Below, piece after piece: positions 4,068 to 16,182 of a DNA stretch of 64,000 bases (the stretch's first letter is position 1; every line of letters starts with the position of its first letter). The notes beneath the pieces were generated by a model that saw only the letters and a program-made list of their open reading frames with translations, had not been told where the DNA came from and did not search any database. This stretch comes from a virus (Duplodnaviria; Heunggongvirae; Uroviricota; Caudoviricetes), in the IMG/VR virus record IMGVR_UViG_3300022660_000050. One strand, written 5' to 3'. The position numbers were made by a program, and so were the translations under genes.

Positions 4068-4090
4068 GCTAAATTTAATGTATAATATAT
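4068..4090 (+). promoter_or_regulatory. promoter region: GGCTAAATTTAATG variant of the recurrent late-type motif, followed by extended -10 TGTATAAT
   Basis: Motif seen directly. It lies about 35-50 nt upstream of the ATG at 4122. Confidence 0.4.
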
Positions 4091-9441: not shown

Positions 9442-10602
9442 ATGCATATAAATAGAGCATTACTTGAATCTTCTGATATTACTAAGCACTTTATGACTGG
9501 CAGAGAGAGACAGGTCAAAAAAGCTCTCTGCCAGCTTTTAATAGATAAAGGGCATAGAAAATATGCAGAACGATTCTGGAAACTAGATTTCAATATCATA
9601 GACTCTAAGAAGCATCCTGATTTTACTGCTGCAATTTCTTTTGATGATGCGACTGTTTTTATTAGCGATGGCTTTCTTGGTAGTGGCGAAGGTATTTTTA
9701 ATCAGTTAGATGTATTAATGCGCCACGAAATGGCTCATAATTTAATGATGCATCAGATTAGAATGATGTATGTGTTTAAAAAACTTCATGCACATGACCC
9801 GGACGAAGCTTATGAACATATTAAATATAGTAGTACACTTCATAACCTTTTAAACATTATTGAAGACTTTGAAATCTCCAATAAACGTTATAGTGCTACT
9901 GATAAGCAGATTGTACGTAACATGATGCTAAATGGTGAAATAATTGGCGGTTTAGTAACTGAGGATCATAGAGGCTGGGATAAGATGTCTCTTGAGCAAA
10001 TGTATGAAGAGCTTTCTAAGGAAATAATTAGAATAAACAGCGCAATCAGAAGTGACCCTTATTGGCGGCCAAACACAAGAACTCATAATGGCAGAGTTGC
10101 TGTAGACAACATTGAGTATAGTACTGCCAAAGCAGCAAGCCTATATCAGAACATAATGAAGCCTTCCGGTATAAAGGCGCCTATTGACGTATTTATGAAG
10201 TCTAAAACTTATAAAAAATGGCCAGAAGTTTTCCAAAAGCTTGTACAGCGGCTATATGACGAATTTAAAGATTTTACTTCTGATGCTGATAAGCAGCGCC
10301 TACTTGACCTTATTGATGATATAGCAGTATCGGCACCACAGCAAGCATGCGATGTTTTAAATCCTCTTACGGGCGAAGTAGTTTGTATTTTATATACACC
10401 AGAAGATAAACTAATTGCTACGGATGTTTTAAAAAATCTTGGTGGTAATATTAATTATAATCCATTAAAATTTAATGTTAAGCGTCAAGTAAACCCACAG
10501 GAGTATAAAGACGCTTGGAATGAGGTTGTTCGTCAGCTAGATTCTAGTAAGTTTGATGATGAGACCCTTAGACAGTTACAAGATGCTATTAATGCAATGT
10601 AA
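9442..10602 (+). CDS. HExxH-motif protein, putative metallopeptidase associated with vWA/MoxR
   Basis: Motif VLMRHEMAHNLMMHQ. Located between the MoxR and vWA genes. AAGGAG RBS. Confidence 0.45.
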   Translation: MHINRALLESSDITKHFMTGRERQVKKALCQLLIDKGHRKYAERFWKLDFNIIDSKKHPDFTAAISFDDATVFISDGFLGSGEGIFNQLDVLMRHEMAHNLMMHQIRMMYVFKKLHAHDPDEAYEHIKYSSTLHNLLNIIEDFEISNKRYSATDKQIVRNMMLNGEIIGGLVTEDHRGWDKMSLEQMYEELSKEIIRINSAIRSDPYWRPNTRTHNGRVAVDNIEYSTAKAASLYQNIMKPSGIKAPIDVFMKSKTYKKWPEVFQKLVQRLYDEFKDFTSDADKQRLLDLIDDIAVSAPQQACDVLNPLTGEVVCILYTPEDKLIATDVLKNLGGNINYNPLKFNVKRQVNPQEYKDAWNEVVRQLDSSKFDDETLRQLQDAINAM

Positions 10603-10626
10603 AAACTGTGAAAGGCAGAGATAATT

Positions 10627-12330
10627 ATGGAAATTAAAGATATATTAAGTAAACTCGGAATAGACTTTTCTAACCCTGATGCAAAACGTGGAGCTTTAGA
10701 AGCGATCGATGCTATTCTTTCTTCGAGAGTTGACTTAGGCTCTGGAGGCGCAGGTGGTGGTCCGGACCTTAACGGAAACGGAGGAGAGATCGAAGTAGAG
10801 ATTGACCCTGATTTGCTGCAGCCTTCAGTAAAACACCATCCAAAAGGCGGTGGGGATGACCTTGAAGTAGAAGATGAAGAAAAGCTACTCGATAAAATAA
10901 AACACAATAAAGCTGAAGATGAGGAAGAGCCTGAAACAAGGGGCCAAGATAACCAGAGCAATTCAGAGGACTCAAGTGAGTCAGGGGAGTCAAGTGACTT
11001 TGATGGCTCCGACGAGAGCTCTGAGCAAGATGATACTGACGACTCTGAAAGCGCCGATACTGGTGATACTAAAGAAACAAGCGAAACTGAAAATTCTGAA
11101 GAAGTAGAAGAGGAAGAAGCTGAAGATTCTTCTGAGGAAGATTCTGAGGAAGATTCTGAGGAAGGTGAAAACTCTGAGGATACTAACACGGAGTTAGACG
11201 GTGAGTCTGAGATAGCTGACGAAACTGAAGATTCAGATGAAGAGGCTGAATTTAGCGATGAAGAAGAATTTCCAGATGAGCATGATTGGCTAGACGACGA
11301 TACTCGAGATGCTATGACTGATAATGGCATTAGCAGTAAGGCAGAGGCTCGTAAAGTAAAAAGAGAGCGCACGTTGCTTGCAGCAAAAGAAGCTTTGAGA
11401 AAAGCTAATGAACGCGGTGCATCAAAAGCACTTATATCTGAGCTCGAAAGCGCTATTGAGGCACTTGAAGCTCTCACAGAGGCTGTTGCAAAAAATATTG
11501 CAGACGTGTCAGATGAAGAGTTTAATCAATTAGTTAACAGAGTATTCGATGCTATAGATGCTCTTGGTACTGGTGATTTGACGTATTCTTCCGAAGAAGA
11601 TCGTCAAGCAAGAGCTCAAGAGATAAAAACTGACTTGGCGAGTAGTAAAACACAGGCGGAACTTTCAGCAGAAGATGCAGCTCAAATAAGAGCTGAAACT
11701 CAAGCAATTAAAGCAAGAGAAAAAGAAGCAGACAAATATAAAACAAAATCCAGAAGCTCGTTCCAAGGTTTCCAAGCGTTTATGGATAGCTTGCAGCGTG
11801 GTATTGCTTTACAGGTTTCTTACGAAGAAGAGCGTGATGACACTTGGTCTGCAATAAGTCGTAGAAATAGTGGTGCAGGTGTTCTTAGACAAGGACAGAA
11901 AATTAATGAGCTTCCAAATAAAAAAATTCCTATCATCGATTTCTATTTTGACCAGTCTGGTTCTTGGGATGAGAGCGATGTAGAAGTAGGAAATCAGGCA
12001 GTAGAAGCTCTTGCAAAAATGCAAGAAGATGGTAAGATAAAAATCAATATTTACTATTTTTCTAATCATGTTCATACTGATGCTGCATCAGCAAGAGCAG
12101 AAGGTGGTACCCGTGCCTGGAACGACATAATTAAAAACATAATAACAACTGAAGCAACTAACGTTGTTATTATGACCGACTCTGACATGGAAGATTGGTG
12201 GGACGGGCCAAAAGCATTGTCCTACACTGTTCCTGGTTTTGTTTGGTATCTATGGCGTAATGGTGTTAACGCACCAAGACTTCCTCGTGACCTAAAAGGT
12301 CGTGGTGGTACTATGCAGTATTCCTTCTGA
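10627..12330 (+). CDS. vWA (von Willebrand factor A, MIDAS) domain protein with a long acidic N-terminal tract
   Basis: MIDAS-like IIDFYFDQSGSWDESD (DxSxS). A D/E-rich low-complexity region lies near aa 70-220. Confidence 0.5.
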   Translation: MEIKDILSKLGIDFSNPDAKRGALEAIDAILSSRVDLGSGGAGGGPDLNGNGGEIEVEIDPDLLQPSVKHHPKGGGDDLEVEDEEKLLDKIKHNKAEDEEEPETRGQDNQSNSEDSSESGESSDFDGSDESSEQDDTDDSESADTGDTKETSETENSEEVEEEEAEDSSEEDSEEDSEEGENSEDTNTELDGESEIADETEDSDEEAEFSDEEEFPDEHDWLDDDTRDAMTDNGISSKAEARKVKRERTLLAAKEALRKANERGASKALISELESAIEALEALTEAVAKNIADVSDEEFNQLVNRVFDAIDALGTGDLTYSSEEDRQARAQEIKTDLASSKTQAELSAEDAAQIRAETQAIKAREKEADKYKTKSRSSFQGFQAFMDSLQRGIALQVSYEEERDDTWSAISRRNSGAGVLRQGQKINELPNKKIPIIDFYFDQSGSWDESDVEVGNQAVEALAKMQEDGKIKINIYYFSNHVHTDAASARAEGGTRAWNDIIKNIITTEATNVVIMTDSDMEDWWDGPKALSYTVPGFVWYLWRNGVNAPRLPRDLKGRGGTMQYSF

Positions 12331-12350
12331 TAAATGAGGTTAAGGTATAT

Positions 12351-12767
12351 ATGGTAGAATTAAAAGATAAACTTACGGTAACAAAAGATTTTATTGATGA
12401 GCTCTGTAGTAAAAGCTGGCAAGATATTGAGCAACTTCAGACACAGCTCGCTAATATAGCTGACTCTGATGAAGGCAAAAAAGTAAAGCAGCTCCTAAAA
12501 AACCTGATTACGAGTTACTATGTATTCATTGGAAGTCTAGAAAATCTAGATGATATCAATTATACTACACAAGATGTTGTACACGTTAAAGAACCGGAAG
12601 TTGTTAAAATAGAACCTCAGGCAGAACCTGATATAATGTTTGAGCCGGAAGACGAAAATACTCAAGCAAAAACAATAGACCTCGATATTAGTGAACCTTT
12701 TGAGTACTTTGTAGATTTTGACGAGCCAACAGGTGAGCCACTTACCGACAAAGACTTATACAATTAA
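12351..12767 (+). CDS. hypothetical acidic protein
   Basis: ORF with GAGG RBS, last gene before a terminator. Confidence 0.45.
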   Translation: MVELKDKLTVTKDFIDELCSKSWQDIEQLQTQLANIADSDEGKKVKQLLKNLITSYYVFIGSLENLDDINYTTQDVVHVKEPEVVKIEPQAEPDIMFEPEDENTQAKTIDLDISEPFEYFVDFDEPTGEPLTDKDLYN

Positions 12768-12772
12768 CAATA

Positions 12773-12806
12773 AAAGCACTCTAAATATTTAGAGTGCTTT
12801 TCTTTA
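12773..12806 (+). terminator. intrinsic terminator hairpin (AGCACTCTAAATATTTAGAGTGCT) plus T-run
   Basis: Seen directly. Confidence 0.6.
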
Positions 12807-12821
12807 TTTGCTAAATTATAT
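12807..12821 (+). promoter_or_regulatory. late-type promoter motif TTTGCTAAATTATAT
   Basis: Motif family member located immediately after a terminator. Confidence 0.5.
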
Positions 12822-12904
12822 GACGGTCGCGGCGGCGGACTTAGCCTTTCACCGTTGCTGTGGTCGTCTTTCTTTGTAAATAACAAGAAGGAGAGTATCT
12901 TTCA

Positions 12905-13666
12905 ATGAAAATAAATAAAACTCCTATTACAGAGGAGAAAAAACTAAAAACTAAGAAAAAGCCTTATGATTCTATCACATATACAACTGGTGATATTTCT
13001 TTAAATATAGGTAGATTCAATCAGGCTATGGGGACAGACTGTGTGGAGACTTCTGCTGAAGGCACTGAAGGCTGTGGTATGACTGAAAGTGTTGAGCTAA
13101 AGGAGGCTAAACGTTACGTTCGTAGATACTATATTCGTCCTCAAAATATCTTCTGTTCAAATAAAGCTGAGATCTTAAAAGCTCTTATTGAACTAGATAA
13201 TGCTAACTGCTCTGTTTATACTCTAAATAATCTTGGAGATGATAAAGATGTAACTAAACTTATGAATAGTGACATTATTTATTATTATGATGATGGTATT
13301 CTTTATGATAAAAATAGAGTAAAAGTAATGGACTACGACCTCTCAATTAAGAAAGAAGAGGACCGTAAACACTTTGCTAACGTGGACAAAGCTCCTGAAA
13401 AAGAATTTAAGGCAGAGTATGAGGATAGAATGACAGACGCAACAGAACTTGAGGAGAGCTTCTTTAATCTTGATTTTGACGCTGTTAATGTATTTGGTGA
13501 AAAACTAACAGAAGCAAAAGAAAGCTTTTGTTGTATTTGTGGTGAACCTATCGAAGGTCATGGAAATAACCCTGAGCCTTTTATGTCTGCAGATGATGGC
13601 AGATGTTGTGACGGTTGTAATCTCAAGTTTGTTATTCCTATGCGACTAGATAGAATGGAGGATTAA
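12905..13666 (+). CDS. hypothetical protein with a C-terminal Cys cluster (CCICGEP...H...CCDGC)
   Basis: ORF with AAGGAGAG RBS. Putative Zn-binding motif. Confidence 0.5.
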   Translation: MKINKTPITEEKKLKTKKKPYDSITYTTGDISLNIGRFNQAMGTDCVETSAEGTEGCGMTESVELKEAKRYVRRYYIRPQNIFCSNKAEILKALIELDNANCSVYTLNNLGDDKDVTKLMNSDIIYYYDDGILYDKNRVKVMDYDLSIKKEEDRKHFANVDKAPEKEFKAEYEDRMTDATELEESFFNLDFDAVNVFGEKLTEAKESFCCICGEPIEGHGNNPEPFMSADDGRCCDGCNLKFVIPMRLDRMED

Positions 13667-13667
13667 T

Positions 13668-15131
13668 ATGGCGGCGCCAGTGATTACAGACCCTAAATTA
13701 GTAATACCTACACAAGAAGATATTGAAAAACTTCTAACAGCAAAATTAAGTTATGAAGCAAAACAGAACACACCTGAGCGCGATACTTGGAATAAAGCTC
13801 ACTTTAATGAAACGCCTTGGGGTATTGCATATAACTGTAGTAAAGCTAAGTATGATAAATCGGTGGCTTCTTATAACAAAGTTCAAAGAAAGTCTAAGAA
13901 TCCACCACAGCAAAAAGCTGATGTAGCTTTAAAGTATCTTATCGTTGCTGTAGCAATTGATTGGAAAGAGCTAATTGACCAATTAAAAAGAACTCTAAAA
14001 AATTGGGGCTATACCTCACAAGATTTACAAAATATCGCTAAAAATGTTTGGTTAACTGACGCGCAGTATATTGCAAATCTATGTGACCGTGTTACAGTAA
14101 CCAAGTTAATTGAGCAAGAGCTTGGCGAGCAGTCTAAAACAGAACTAACCGAAGCTATTGAGAAACATGATAGCTTAAACAATAAGCTCTTTACAAAAGA
14201 AGAGTTGCTAAAAGATCAAGTAAGAGATAAGATGCTTGAAATTGTCGACGAATTTTTAGCAGACCTTAAAGAGCAGGATGTTAAAATAAAAGTTGATGAT
14301 ATCCTTATGATTGGCTCTAATGCTAGCTATAATTATACAAAAGATAGTGATATTGACCTTCACGTTCTTGCTAACGCTAAAGCCGCTGACTACTCTACCG
14401 ATATAGCAAATGCTCTATATAGTGCATATCGTTCACTATTTAATAAAAATTTAGATATCAAATTGTTTGGCATTCCGCTTGAAATCTTTGTTGAAACTGA
14501 GGAGAGCACAAGAGTAAGCAATGGTGTTTATTCCGTAAAGAAAAATAAGTGGATTAAAAAGCCTGTTCACGAAGATATCCCAGACTATGACAAGGAAGCA
14601 CTAAACAAACTTGTTGATGAGTGGGAAGATAAGTGTAAAAAACTTATTGATGATATAAAAGCAGATAAGCTTGAAGATGAAAAGAAAGTAGTTAAGATGC
14701 TAGAAGAGATATATGATAAACTCCGTAAAAAAGGCATCTCGAAAGGTGAATACTCTACAGAAAATTTAACTTTTAAAGAGCTTCGTAATAAAGGATATTT
14801 GGACCAGCTAAAAGACTACAGAAATGAGCTTGTATCAAAGAGATTATCTCTTGAGGAAAAACTCGATAGACAGCAAAGAGTTGATATTTATAACCAGCTT
14901 TTTAGAGCTGCCGGCACACAGCCAGTTATCCAAGATAACGGAATGTTCTTTATATATAATCTAAAGGCTTCTGAGGTTGACGCTGCGTTAAGTGCGATAA
15001 GAAGACTTCCATTTGTTATTGAAGTCCATGCAAATGAAAATGGAAAGTATGACTTCTCAAATACACTTGATATAGCAATGAACAAAATACCTAAGAAATA
15101 CTATAATATCCGAGGTACTCTTAAAATATAA
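13668..15131 (+). CDS. nucleotidyltransferase (Pol-beta superfamily) fold protein
   Basis: ILMIGSNASYNYTKDSDIDLHVL fits the h-G-S-x9-13-D-h-D NTase core. A helix precedes it. Possible downstream acidic residues at EIFVETEE. Confidence 0.45.
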   Translation: MAAPVITDPKLVIPTQEDIEKLLTAKLSYEAKQNTPERDTWNKAHFNETPWGIAYNCSKAKYDKSVASYNKVQRKSKNPPQQKADVALKYLIVAVAIDWKELIDQLKRTLKNWGYTSQDLQNIAKNVWLTDAQYIANLCDRVTVTKLIEQELGEQSKTELTEAIEKHDSLNNKLFTKEELLKDQVRDKMLEIVDEFLADLKEQDVKIKVDDILMIGSNASYNYTKDSDIDLHVLANAKAADYSTDIANALYSAYRSLFNKNLDIKLFGIPLEIFVETEESTRVSNGVYSVKKNKWIKKPVHEDIPDYDKEALNKLVDEWEDKCKKLIDDIKADKLEDEKKVVKMLEEIYDKLRKKGISKGEYSTENLTFKELRNKGYLDQLKDYRNELVSKRLSLEEKLDRQQRVDIYNQLFRAAGTQPVIQDNGMFFIYNLKASEVDAALSAIRRLPFVIEVHANENGKYDFSNTLDIAMNKIPKKYYNIRGTLKI

Positions 15132-15133
15132 AG

Positions 15134-15170
15134 TAAAAGCACTCTATTTTTGATAGAGTGCTTTATTTTT
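15134..15170 (+). terminator. intrinsic terminator hairpin (AAAGCACTCTAT..ATAGAGTGCTTT) plus T-run
   Basis: Seen directly. Confidence 0.6.
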
Positions 15171-15178
15171 ATTAAATT

Positions 15179-15196
15179 TATTTGCTAAATTATACA
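15179..15196 (+). promoter_or_regulatory. late-type promoter motif TTTGCTAAATTATACAG
   Basis: Motif family member, 47 nt upstream of the ATG at 15226. Confidence 0.5.
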
Positions 15197-15225: not shown

Positions 15226-16182
15226 ATGAGAAAACAAACTTTGCAAGAACAATGCTTATCAGAGCTTCTTAAGCTGACTGAGGCAAACAGAACTTCTTTG
15301 ATAGCCCAATCTAGAAATGCTGGGGCCTATAAAAACCAAGAGCGTGGCAAAAATAGAATGGAACGTAAGAAGTATTCTAAGATTGCTAACGCTGTTAAGA
15401 ATTATAATGAAATAGATATGAACAAGCTGTTCAAACAAGATATACTTCAAGTAAATATTCCTGTTGTCGGTGAAAATGATGAGTACACTGTTACCATCAA
15501 AATCGAAGGCGTCATTGGAGAAATGCAGAAAAATATTAAAAACAACAACAATAAGATGGAATTCCGAACAATAGTTCAGTCACTCACAAAAGTTTTTAAT
15601 ACTACAGATGTTTATGTAAAATGCACCTGTCCTGACTTTAAATATCGCTTTGCACACTGGAACATTATAAAAAATGTTTCTGTAGATGATTCTTCTGCCG
15701 ACCCTGGCCCTGGTAAAGGAATCGCTAACCCAAATGATGATAAGGGAAGAGGTTGTAAACATATCCTACTTGTTCTCAGTAATGGCGACTGGATGCTCAA
15801 AGTTGCGTCAGTTATAAATAACTATTGTCACTTCCTATCAGAGAAAAAGCCAGAAGCTTTCTTGAAACTTGTGTTCCCTAAACTATATGGAGTTCCTGCT
15901 GATGAGGCTGCTGAGAATGGACTTGTGGCCGACAACGAAGATCTCGAAACAGGAAAAGACCTTATTGATATAGTTAATGAATACGGTAAGAACCGCGGTA
16001 AATTCCAGAAAGGTTCTAATAAAAATCCTGTTACTGGAACTGGCGGTAAACAGAAAGCTGAAAAGCCTGAGGAAGAAAAACCTGAGGAAAAGCCTACTAA
16101 AAAGGTTGAAGAACCTGCTGAGGAACCTAAAGAGGCACCTAAGGAAGATTCAGAAGAAAACGATAAACAGAATAAAAACTAA
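15226..16182 (+). CDS. SWIM-type zinc finger protein with a Lys/Glu-rich C-terminal tail. By position it is a candidate terminase small subunit or DNA-binding packaging factor.
   Basis: CTCPDFKYRFAHW...GRGCKHILLVL matches the CxC...CxH SWIM pattern. Immediately upstream of terL. Confidence 0.45.
   Translation: MRKQTLQEQCLSELLKLTEANRTSLIAQSRNAGAYKNQERGKNRMERKKYSKIANAVKNYNEIDMNKLFKQDILQVNIPVVGENDEYTVTIKIEGVIGEMQKNIKNNNNKMEFRTIVQSLTKVFNTTDVYVKCTCPDFKYRFAHWNIIKNVSVDDSSADPGPGKGIANPNDDKGRGCKHILLVLSNGDWMLKVASVINNYCHFLSEKKPEAFLKLVFPKLYGVPADEAAENGLVADNEDLETGKDLIDIVNEYGKNRGKFQKGSNKNPVTGTGGKQKAEKPEEEKPEEKPTKKVEEPAEEPKEAPKEDSEENDKQNKN

Follow-up and report, generated by a model that had tools for sequence, protein, structure and literature searches.

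A zinc-ribbon and nucleotidyltransferase gene pair preceded by a candidate operator RNA is a core module of a family of uncultured jumbo phages

Results

Organization of the cassette

We analysed a two-gene cassette in a 64,000-nucleotide stretch of DNA from a virus of the Caudoviricetes (IMG/VR record IMGVR_UViG_3300022660_000050), which in its full length is referred to here as the window. The cassette comprises gene 1, which encodes a cysteine (Cys) protein with a C-terminal zinc ribbon, and gene 2 (13668-15131), which encodes a protein of 487 amino acids (aa) with a nucleotidyltransferase (NTase) core of the Pol-beta type, and it is preceded by a structured leader and bracketed by terminator-like hairpins (Table 1). 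Both open reading frames (ORFs) that an initial annotation, made from the sequence alone, had reported here are present as described. The stop codon TAA of gene 1 and the ATG of gene 2 are 1 base apart, and the Shine-Dalgarno (SD) sequence of gene 2, GGAGGA, sits within the 3' end of gene 1.

The initial annotation had also described the pair as bracketed by two nearly identical intrinsic terminators. Indeed, two hairpins of 13 pairs each, followed by T-runs, are found, and they have the arms AAAGCACTCTA/TAGAGTGCTTT in common; the 11-mer of these arms has four exact copies in the 64-kb window, all of them within the two hairpins. In all relatives checked, a hairpin and a T-run likewise flank the cassette on both sides, with stem sequences that are unrelated. 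Together with the promoter-like motif described below, these terminators bear out the description of the pair as an insulated unit. Because the two terminators of the relatives have unrelated stems, the near-identity of the pair is peculiar to the window genome, and we rejected it as a meaningful design feature; it probably arose by local recombination. Of note, the position of the AAAGCACTCTA stem varies, in that it is found in the upstream terminator in the relative L002, in the downstream terminator in L034 and in both in the window, which suggests terminator exchange or gene conversion between the ends of the cassette.

Directly after each terminator hairpin, at 12807 and 15181, lies the motif TTTGCTAAATTATA. 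With up to two mismatches, it has nine matches in the window, all of them intergenic and on the plus strand, a number that none of 100 shuffles reached, and looser GCTAAATTA variants lie 5' of further genes, including those for peptide deformylase, NrdD and a SNF2 helicase. The site at 12807 is missing from the list of sigma-70 -35/-10 pairs, and the motif is unlike canonical sigma-70 sequences. In the distant relatives examined, the motif is kept at the same position upstream of the cassette. We conclude that TTTGCTAAATTATA is a general promoter-like signal of this phage and is not specific to the cassette. The suggestion that the cassette has a promoter of its own therefore stands insofar as the motif precedes it, but not insofar as the motif serves the cassette alone.

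Table 1 Features of the cassette and its borders in the window
Feature	Position	Strand	Remarks
Terminator hairpin 1	12772-12801	+	Stem AAAAGCACTCTAA/TTAGAGTGCTTTT, then T-run; ends the upstream MoxR/vWA-type operon
Promoter-like motif TTTGCTAAATTATA	12807-12820	+	2-3 nucleotides (nt) 5' of the leader hairpin; putative promoter function
Leader RNA stem-loop	12822-12868	+	17-bp stem, G.U-rich; 13-nt loop ACUUAGCCUUUCA
Gene 1 SD AGAAGGAGA	12887-12895	+	Read from the sequence and the minimum-free-energy structure
Gene 1	12905-13666	+	253 aa, Cys protein with C-terminal C4 zinc ribbon
Gene 2, N-terminal helical domain (aa 1-~150)	13668-14120	+	Lineage-specific; without relatives of known structure
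Gene 2, NTase core (aa ~155-400)	14130-14870	+	Pol-beta alpha/beta domain, then helical bundle; corresponds to PHROG 36119
Gene 2, C-terminal small alpha/beta domain (aa ~405-487)	14880-15131	+	
Terminator hairpin 2	15136-15164	+	Ends the cassette; 11-nt arms same as in hairpin 1
Second TTTGCTAAATTATA copy	15181-15194	+	Precedes the packaging operon (SWIM-type 318-aa protein, large terminase (TerL), T4-type portal)

A stem-loop in the leader has an invariant loop and a covarying stem

The cassette had previously been described without a structured leader RNA; however, a 17-bp stem-loop lies at 12822-12868, in a GC-rich island between the promoter-like motif and the SD sequence of gene 1. The sense RNA of this leader is predicted to fold at -31 kcal/mol (z = -3.3). 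The corresponding values are -12.2 kcal/mol (z = -1.0) for the antisense RNA and -9.2 for DNA, and because folding is weak on the other strand and as DNA, we rejected an antisense RNA and a DNA cruciform as the element.

Relatives reached via their proteins have the same loop and compensatory changes in the stem. Pattern scans yielded 23 distinct leader sequences and, in an alignment of 17 of these to which no model had been fitted, 10 of the 17 base pairs vary on both sides and 95.5% of the cells are paired as compared to 33-68% in slid controls. Because the pattern scans required the loop sequence, we built a covariance model and ran it on loci fetched via the protein. The model located the element directly 5' of the Cys-protein gene in distant relatives with entirely different stems; the loops in these relatives read (A/G/U)CUUAUCCUUUCA, and the loop core CUUA(G/U)CCUUUCA is kept. 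Among 34 sequences, all 17 pairs vary on both sides and 94.7% of the cells are paired (31-50% in slid controls), and these covariation values were attained in 0 of 500 shuffles. The hairpin occurs once per locus and only if a homolog of the Cys protein is present, even where this gene has grown to 3-4 kb, and it was never found in loci that have the NTase domain but no Cys-protein homolog. The whole window had no match in Rfam at gathering thresholds; a permissive Rfam search of the leader region gave RsaD as the best match, on the opposite strand and with 25.6 bits against a threshold of 50. Based on these comparisons, the leader appears to be a previously undescribed, strongly conserved cis-RNA element on the sense strand between the promoter-like motif and the ribosome-binding site.

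What might such an element do? Stabilizing stems at the 5' end of mRNAs are known from the ompA and T4 gene 32 leaders, and the leader hairpin could be a generic 5' stabilizer of this kind, or an RNase III processing site, without a specific regulator. In agreement with this, the stem is long and perfect, and the hairpin follows 2-3 nt 3' of GCTAAATTAT in all 34 sequences. A generic stabilizer would, however, have no need of a fixed loop, yet the loop of 12-13 nt is kept while the 17 stem pairs change, and such a hairpin is absent 3' of all other copies of the promoter motif in the window. We therefore consider a generic role unlikely. We also considered that the loop, which contains CCUUUC, might mimic an anti-SD sequence and sequester its own ribosome-binding site, and rejected this because the duplex has -5.04 kcal/mol as compared to -5.02 kcal/mol for shuffled loops; similarly, pairing of the loop with another site in the window was rejected because complementary matches were fewer than expected by chance. 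With pairing to the ribosome-binding site or to another site leaving loop conservation unexplained, what is left is recognition by a protein. Thus, a fixed loop on a varying stem, linked to a single gene for a protein with a nearly invariant domain and a zinc ribbon, is best explained if the leader stem-loop is an operator that is probably recognized by a protein.

The constant 2-3 nt that separate motif and hairpin suggest a transcription start immediately 3' of the motif, an unusual arrangement if the motif were a sigma-70 -10 element. As a separate observation, the exact 18 nt of the loop and its closing pairs also occur in the locus L012 (IMGVR_UViG_3300033233_000042, 2169-2186), in unrelated surroundings where there is neither a promoter motif nor a flanking stem; this copy is probably a chance match.

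An AAGGAG-type SD sequence precedes gene 1 in all relatives. In the window, the SD sequence GAAGGA (12884-12904 region) is predicted to pair with UCUUUC just 5' of the AUG, which gives a small hairpin in the minimum-free-energy structure. Pyrimidine-rich spacers between SD sequence and AUG are present in relatives as well (UCUUUCA or ACUUCUA), and the hexamer CUUUCA recurs in the leader loop.

Gene 2 encodes an NTase with an intact acidic triad

The NTase signature that had been noted in gene 2, IGSNASYNYTKDSDIDLHVL, is present, and its GS...DxD pattern is of the Pol-beta type. With residues numbered as in the window protein, G216, S217, D228, D230 and H232 do not vary, either among 37 close relatives or among 36 diverse members of the family. 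A third catalytic acid had been proposed to lie in EIFVETEE, and the comparison supports this: of the two candidates in PLEIFVETEE, E276 is invariant and E272 at least 90% conserved among the 36 diverse members. H167, N171, S284, G286, Y288, S289 and W295 are also invariant in these members, as is the motif GEYxxxNLxFKExRN in the helical bundle.

An AlphaFold model of aa 150-405 made with the diverse alignment has a mean predicted local distance difference test score (pLDDT) of 90.5 and a predicted template modelling score (pTM) of 0.78. It consists of an alpha/beta NTase domain, in which GS, DxD and E lie on successive strands, followed by the helical bundle; GS and DxD are at the ends of strands 60-66 and 80-86 of the core model, and E272/E276 are on strand 120-127. 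The prediction that the GS...DxD segment folds as an NTase beta-sheet is therefore confirmed at the level of a confident model, in which this segment is on adjacent beta-strands. In a full-length AF2 model made with a shallow alignment, the core has a pLDDT below 50 and the flanking domains are modelled. The N-terminal helical domain reaches a pLDDT of ~72-94 over aa 1-140, and in distant relatives it is 25-41% identical or absent. The C-terminal domain consists of strands and helices (pLDDT 76-90) and is attached to the core in many other family members, in which matches reach aa 483-487. A fold search with the full-length model returned nothing significant (best E = 0.66) and no detectable relatives of the N- and C-terminal domains, and the N-terminal domain had none by sequence either. 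The ~220 aa that had been described as helical and N-terminal to the motif thus fall into two parts, of which ~150 aa do form a helical domain, which is lineage-specific, while the other ~60 aa belong to the conserved enzyme core.

In a Foldseek search against the PDB, the core matched Pol-beta NTases exclusively, all weakly (best E = 2.6e-3, TM ~0.2); the matches include CdnE, AAD(9), the minimal NTases (MNT), poly(A) polymerases, CCA-adding enzymes and ANT(4'). When the PDB was searched by sequence and by profile, no relatives of gene 1, the full-length NTase or the NTase core were found. We conclude that the modelled gene 2 protein is confirmed as a Pol-beta NTase fold with an intact acidic triad; judged by its conserved residues, it is apparently an active NTase.

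The NTase core defines a large unannotated phage family

No recognizable family had been assigned to gene 2. This holds for curated functional families, but the core itself matches PHROG 36119, a family listed as of unknown function, with E = 7.3e-34, profile positions 11-247 of 247 aligning to aa 156-395. An exhaustive HMMER search detected 3,714 cluster representatives (50% identity) at E <=1e-3, of which 2,983 are at E <=1e-10, and the core is housed in proteins of ~235 to 1,500 aa. By tBLASTn, proteins with ~30% identity, annotated as 'hypothetical protein', were found in freshwater and estuarine cyanomyoviruses, Lak megaphages, the Maribacter phages Molly and Colly, and Caulobacter phages. 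In 185,579 species genomes, the NTase was found only on contigs of metagenome-assembled genomes (MAGs) from gut and rumen, which are mostly 120-220 kb and phage-like. Thus, the NTase family is large, found only on phage-like contigs and entirely unannotated.

Pfam models match gene 2 at aa 195-265 and below their thresholds, NTP_transf_2 with 20.2 bits (gathering threshold 21) and Polbeta with 19.4 bits (26.9). Among 121 family members, 51 and 38 match NTP_transf_2/Polbeta at E <=0.01 or 0.001, the best E being 1e-9. These two and two further best-scoring profiles, the NCBIfam model MntA (E = 0.0018) and PADLOC PDC-S09 (E = 5e-5), are of the minimal-NTase type, and the structural hits include 2rff, 1ylq and MntA-HepT complexes. 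Gene 2 could, therefore, be an MntA-like protein nucleotidylyltransferase that AMPylates or NMPylates a protein, for example to neutralize host RNase toxins that belong to abortive-infection or toxin-antitoxin (TA) systems, or to switch off the toxin domains with which it is fused in other phages, and the TA toxins YafQ, MazF, ParE-like and Fic/Doc among the fusion partners of the core (see below) would fit with this. On the other hand, the scores are far under the family cut-offs (MntA, 18.1 bits versus 60), gene 2 is flanked by the genes for the Cys protein and for the SWIM protein and not by one for a HEPN toxin, the core, which includes a conserved helical domain of its own, is twice as large as an MNT, and the fusions are rare. 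Weighing both sides, we regard an MntA-like activity as rather unlikely.

An enzyme that tails or repairs RNA 3' ends, of the non-canonical poly(A)/CCA-adding or RlaP-like kind, would restore or mark the ends of RNAs in infected cells and would go along with a gene 1 zinc ribbon that binds RNA. The RlaP and CCA-adding families of RNA-repair NTases are reviewed in PMC7824862. Neither the RlaP nor the PolyA_pol (CCA) Pfam model matched gene 2 or any of the 121 members, there is one RNA ligase among 149 genes neighbouring the NTase and no tRNA gene in the window, and all similarities are limited to the generic NTase palm. This reading is, in our estimation, also fairly unlikely.

A role in nucleotide signalling, as in cGAS/DncV-like NTases (CD-NTases), had been suggested as well. 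SMODS/CD-NTase models of Pfam and the cyclase models of PADLOC gave no match to gene 2 at E up to 1 and none in the 121 members, and what speaks for such a relation are the weak Foldseek matches to CdnE (E = 2.6e-3, TM 0.23). Nucleotide signalling as the activity of gene 2 is therefore distinctly improbable, and the RNA, protein and signalling readings together leave much of the probability unassigned. Homology to Gad2, a phage NTase discussed below, was rejected based on an hhalign probability of 0.3% and a BLASTP E of 2.3 for the SPbetaL7 gene (OQ921347.1, 109563-110765). We conclude that gene 2 is not placeable in any characterized or curated functional family.

Gene 1 encodes a zinc-ribbon protein confined to the phage family

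In the gene 1 protein, an N-terminal part that varies is followed by a central domain (aa ~65-185) that is nearly invariant, an insertion site and a C-terminal ribbon of the form CxxC-x22-CxxC with a conserved GNNPEP loop, in which C209, C212, C235 and C238 are invariant. C84 and C102 are also conserved. The Cys cluster that had been noted in this protein is accordingly upheld for the ribbon and for these two residues but not for the N-terminal cysteines, which are not conserved. Relatives carry insertions before the ribbon, such that the whole protein reaches up to 1,118 aa; in seven expanded homologs scanned with Pfam and PHROG, no extra domains were found. Homologs of gene 1 are confined to the jumbo-phage family of the window, and the protein had no match in Pfam, PHROG, NCBIfam, PADLOC or the PDB. 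A DksA/TraR C4 zinc finger, which is the label of a gene 1 homolog in one source, was rejected because a search with zf-dskA_traR to E = 1 had no match; what both have in common is the CxxC...CxxC spacing alone. We take the ribbon to resemble zinc modules of the TRASH/L24e type, as a lead rather than a test.

The cassette is a core module at a fixed position

To place the cassette in its genomic context, we compared gene order in the relatives L002 and L004 and in 80 IMG/VR loci that had been fetched via the NTase core. In L002 and L004, the NTases of which are 71-73% identical to gene 2, gene order is kept: upstream are genes for an AAA (MoxR-like) protein and for proteins of 392 aa, 618 aa and 148 aa, and from the cassette onward there follow a Cys protein of 249-311 aa, the NTase, a protein of 302-320 aa, TerL, the portal and, further on, the protease and the capsid protein. 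In the fetched IMG/VR loci, the order p567, p138, Cys protein, NTase, p318, TerL, portal holds down to ~43-55% identity of the NTase core, and in still more distant lineages a gene with the NTase domain lies directly 5' of TerL. In distant relatives, identities are 58-69% for the central domain of the Cys protein and 49-70% for its zinc ribbon, 53-70% for TerL, 52-70% for the portal and 43-55% for the NTase core; the central domain of gene 1 is thus conserved at a level similar to that of TerL and the portal. The GC content is 0.34-0.36 in the cassette and 0.36-0.42 in its neighbours, without a step.

These data bear on the proposal that the cassette has a moron-like architecture, that is, an accessory cassette with a cGAS/CD-NTase-like signalling or anti-signalling enzyme that was acquired against host immunity. 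In line with this proposal, the cassette comes with a promoter motif and terminators of its own, CdnE cyclic-dinucleotide synthases are at the top of the Foldseek list, and in some relatives there is an insertion hot spot just 3' of the cassette terminator, for example between NTase and p318 in L032 and L036; in L004, an extra gene at this place (11559-12371) encodes Amidase_3 and PG_binding_1 domains. A moron would be expected to be absent or variable in related phages, but every relative that covers the region has the cassette, and has it in the same place; patchy presence was not seen. Because of this fixed position, the genome-wide motif and the lack of a GC break, the moron reading fails, and we rejected acquisition on the grounds of synteny, conservation, shared promoter motif and GC content, leaving it as a very improbable explanation. 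We conclude that the cassette is a vertically inherited core module of the jumbo-phage family and not an acquired add-on.

The phage and its relatives

No DNA match to the window was found in the collection of cultured phages. Besides the cassette, the window has genes for a large terminase, for a portal of the T4 type, for a prohead protease of the gp21 type and for a capsid protein of the gp23 type, as well as for topoisomerase I, peptide deformylase, a SNF2 helicase and an anaerobic ribonucleotide reductase; tRNA genes were not found in it. Contigs from metagenomes, 21 of them and up to 220 kb long, encode the 487-aa protein with 100% identity, and there are hundreds of full-length relatives of gene 2 at 71-92% identity on contigs of up to 243 kb. 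Thus, the source lineage is a large clade of uncultured jumbo phages with contigs of ~170-240 kb. The samples, together with mis-binned MAG contigs that carry the NTase, point to animal gut and rumen. In a GTDB genome collection, the NTase-bearing phage-like contigs (L113-L140; 120-220 kb) are binned into very different taxa, namely Bacteroidales, Lachnospiraceae, Bacilli, Erysipelotrichaceae, Acholeplasmatales, Treponema, Methanobrevibacter and Melainabacteria; because these bins are taxonomically scattered, MAG binning says little about the host.

Among IMG/VR relatives (L047-L108), many genes for TerL, portal, p318, NTase and Cys protein have in-frame stops when read with translation table 11, for example L047:8786-11635 and L063:8932-11025. 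TGA accounts for 135 of the 142 in-frame stops in these loci and is opposite a Trp of the window orthologs at 44 of 58 positions. This pattern indicates, at the level of codon comparison, a sub-lineage in which TGA has been recoded to Trp; in the window, the genes are read without interruption in the standard code.

The protein of 318 aa encoded between the cassette and TerL (15226-16182) has a SWIM-type signature, CxCPD...CKH, with a sub-threshold match to Pfam SWIM (E = 0.0067). In distant relatives it has the same position and 57-67% identity, and it occupies the place expected of the small terminase. An antisense ORF of 314 aa (10533-11477, minus strand), which is Ser-rich, faces the central part of the 567-aa protein (10627-12330, plus strand), where this is acidic and of low complexity, and is almost certainly a compositional artefact of this Asp/Glu-rich region and not a gene.

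Sites of the form (T)GCTAAATTA are located in the window at 4068, 6939, 12807, 15181, 20827, 21326, 24766, 30329, 32834, 45520, 46964, 49662, 51969 and 54684. They are of two types, ...TTATA and ...TTAAT, always on the plus strand and 25-100 nt 5' of start codons, and are often immediately 3' of a terminator hairpin.

Fusions and neighbours of the NTase core outside the cassette

Among the 121 family members, the core is fused to PemK/MazF in three, to YafQ in two, and to ParE-like, Fic and SprT domains in one each. An example is P0304 (368 aa), in which YafQ occupies residues 2-87 and the core residues 116-368; P0376 (1029 aa) is another representative in which the core is fused to domains of the TA-toxin or SprT type. 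A fragment with a PTS-HPr segment, P0305, may be a chimera of assembly or gene calling. Scans of seven very long proteins with the NTase core (up to 1,500 aa) against Pfam and PHROG showed no other known domain. Where the core lies outside the cassette, the 149 neighbouring genes are mostly genes of the virion module and genes for BspA-type leucine-rich repeat (LRR) proteins and RecA; two have ART-PolyVal. A PARP-like domain lies two genes from an NTase protein of 871 aa in L054; the scan that found it otherwise gave a BspA-type LRR domain and an SOD domain. The fusions, the long host ORFs and the neighbours resemble the polyvalent or virion-delivered effectors of PMC5512222, and the support they lend is thin. 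Term searches of that paper gave RelA/SpoT and GGDEF as the only NTases, and the family of gene 2 was not among the domains they returned.

Discussion

Based on the conserved leader, the coupled gene pair and the conserved NTase core, we propose that 12772-15164 is a self-contained core transcription unit with an operator leader, a zinc-ribbon protein and an NTase that modifies a macromolecular acceptor, a proposal as a whole to which we give an even chance of being right. In this model, the unit would be transcribed from the general promoter motif into an mRNA with a 5'-terminal stem-loop that presents an invariant pyrimidine-rich loop, and gene 2 would be translationally coupled to gene 1. 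The leader would act as a sequence-specific operator that is recognized by a protein and controls how much of the pair is made, or when, and it may also stabilize the 5' end of the mRNA. The most economical binder of the leader would be the product of gene 1, giving autoregulation as for the T4 gene 32/43 operators or Mu Com. The NTase, in turn, would move a nucleotide from an NTP onto a macromolecular acceptor, either the 3' end of an RNA or the side chain of a protein, and would target host or defence components rather than have a metabolic or structural role. Its expression would coincide with that of the head and packaging genes, and it may enter the host together with the virion.

Several observations weigh against this model. 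First, the tight coupling of the two genes is limited to close relatives, with gaps of 0.4-1.6 kb between gene 1 and gene 2 in distant ones. Second, the promoter motif also precedes the genes for NrdD, the SNF2 helicase and peptide deformylase, which makes 'late' timing tentative. Third, the hairpin would be shorter if transcription starts within its 5' arm; the covariation of the outermost pairs argues that these pairs are transcribed. Fourth, toxin fusions are rare (~7 of 121), and some of them could be artefacts of gene calling or assembly. Fifth, in the cultured phages S-CRM01 (g125) and Molly (gp026), the core stands alone in early/metabolic regions, and the small ORFs beside these stand-alone NTases had no homology to gene 1 or to the N- and C-terminal domains of gene 2; therefore, the linkage to packaging genes is a trait of the phage family of the window and not of the enzyme. 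Finally, substrate, timing and binding partner are all inferred in a system without a characterized homolog.

We also considered a bolder version, in which the cassette is a new kind of effector system that is delivered by the virion. Both proteins would be produced along with the head and packaging genes under control of a dedicated RNA operator, packaged, and injected with the DNA, and the NTase would then nucleotidylylate a host target; the targets envisaged would be RNA polymerase, the ribosome or tRNA, or an abortive-infection toxin. T4 Alt is an ADP-ribosylating protein, and if the bolder version were true, the NTase would be its nucleotidyl-transfer counterpart and PHROG 36119 a widespread injected phage 'NMPylase'. 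We deem this version quite unlikely.

Independently of which version applies, the leader is a clean candidate for a new RNA family that is tied to one gene, and it offers a direct experimental handle, with one RNA, two candidate binders and one readout. The NTase family is of interest for its size and its lack of annotation, and nothing in our data overturns current knowledge.

Comparison with known systems

Gad2 is a predicted NTase of the Bacillus phage SPbetaL7 that inhibits Gabija (bioRxiv 10.1101/2023.05.01.538930). Like gene 2, it is a phage protein of the NTase fold with an obscure mechanism, and its anti-host activity makes it a functional analogue for a counter-defence hypothesis; unlike gene 2, which is a conserved core gene and has no detectable homology to Gad2, it is encoded in a variable anti-defence locus. 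TENT5/FAM46 poly(A) polymerases and the antibiotic NTases ANT(4')/AAD(9) are also among the closest known systems. Minimal NTases, including MntA of the type VII HEPN-MNT systems, have the GSx10DxD pattern with the same spacing and give the best profile and structure matches to the alpha/beta domain; they differ in that scores are below the cut-offs, a HEPN partner is lacking, and the core in the window adds a helical bundle and an upstream HDxLNPxLF segment.

The leaders of T4 genes 32 and 43 are phage translational operators, and Mu com-mom is governed by a zinc-finger RNA regulator. The cassette is like these systems in that a phage operon of tightly linked genes has a structured 5' leader, and like Mu com-mom in having a small C4 zinc-finger gene directly before, and coupled to, the gene for an enzyme. 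Unlike in these systems, to which the leader has no sequence or Rfam relation, the hairpin in the window lies 5' of the zinc-ribbon gene and not between the genes. Polyvalent and virion-delivered effectors (T4 Alt, MuF fusions; PMC5512222) are similar in that an enzymatic domain is part of very large multidomain ORFs, is occasionally fused to toxin domains and, as for the NTase, has head/packaging and ART-PolyVal neighbours; in contrast, the NTase has no MuF, portal or other packaging-anchor domain and is known here from genes alone.

The profile of PHROG 36119 covers the entire core (aa 156-395), and members of this family in cultured phages, such as g125 of Synechococcus phage S-CRM01 and gp026 of Maribacter phage Molly, have ~29-33% identity to it and the same invariant residues. 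These proteins are stand-alone enzymes of 242-265 aa, encoded in early/metabolic regions among unrelated neighbours, whereas gene 2 of the window has orphan domains on both sides of the core and is part of an operon of its own next to the packaging genes.

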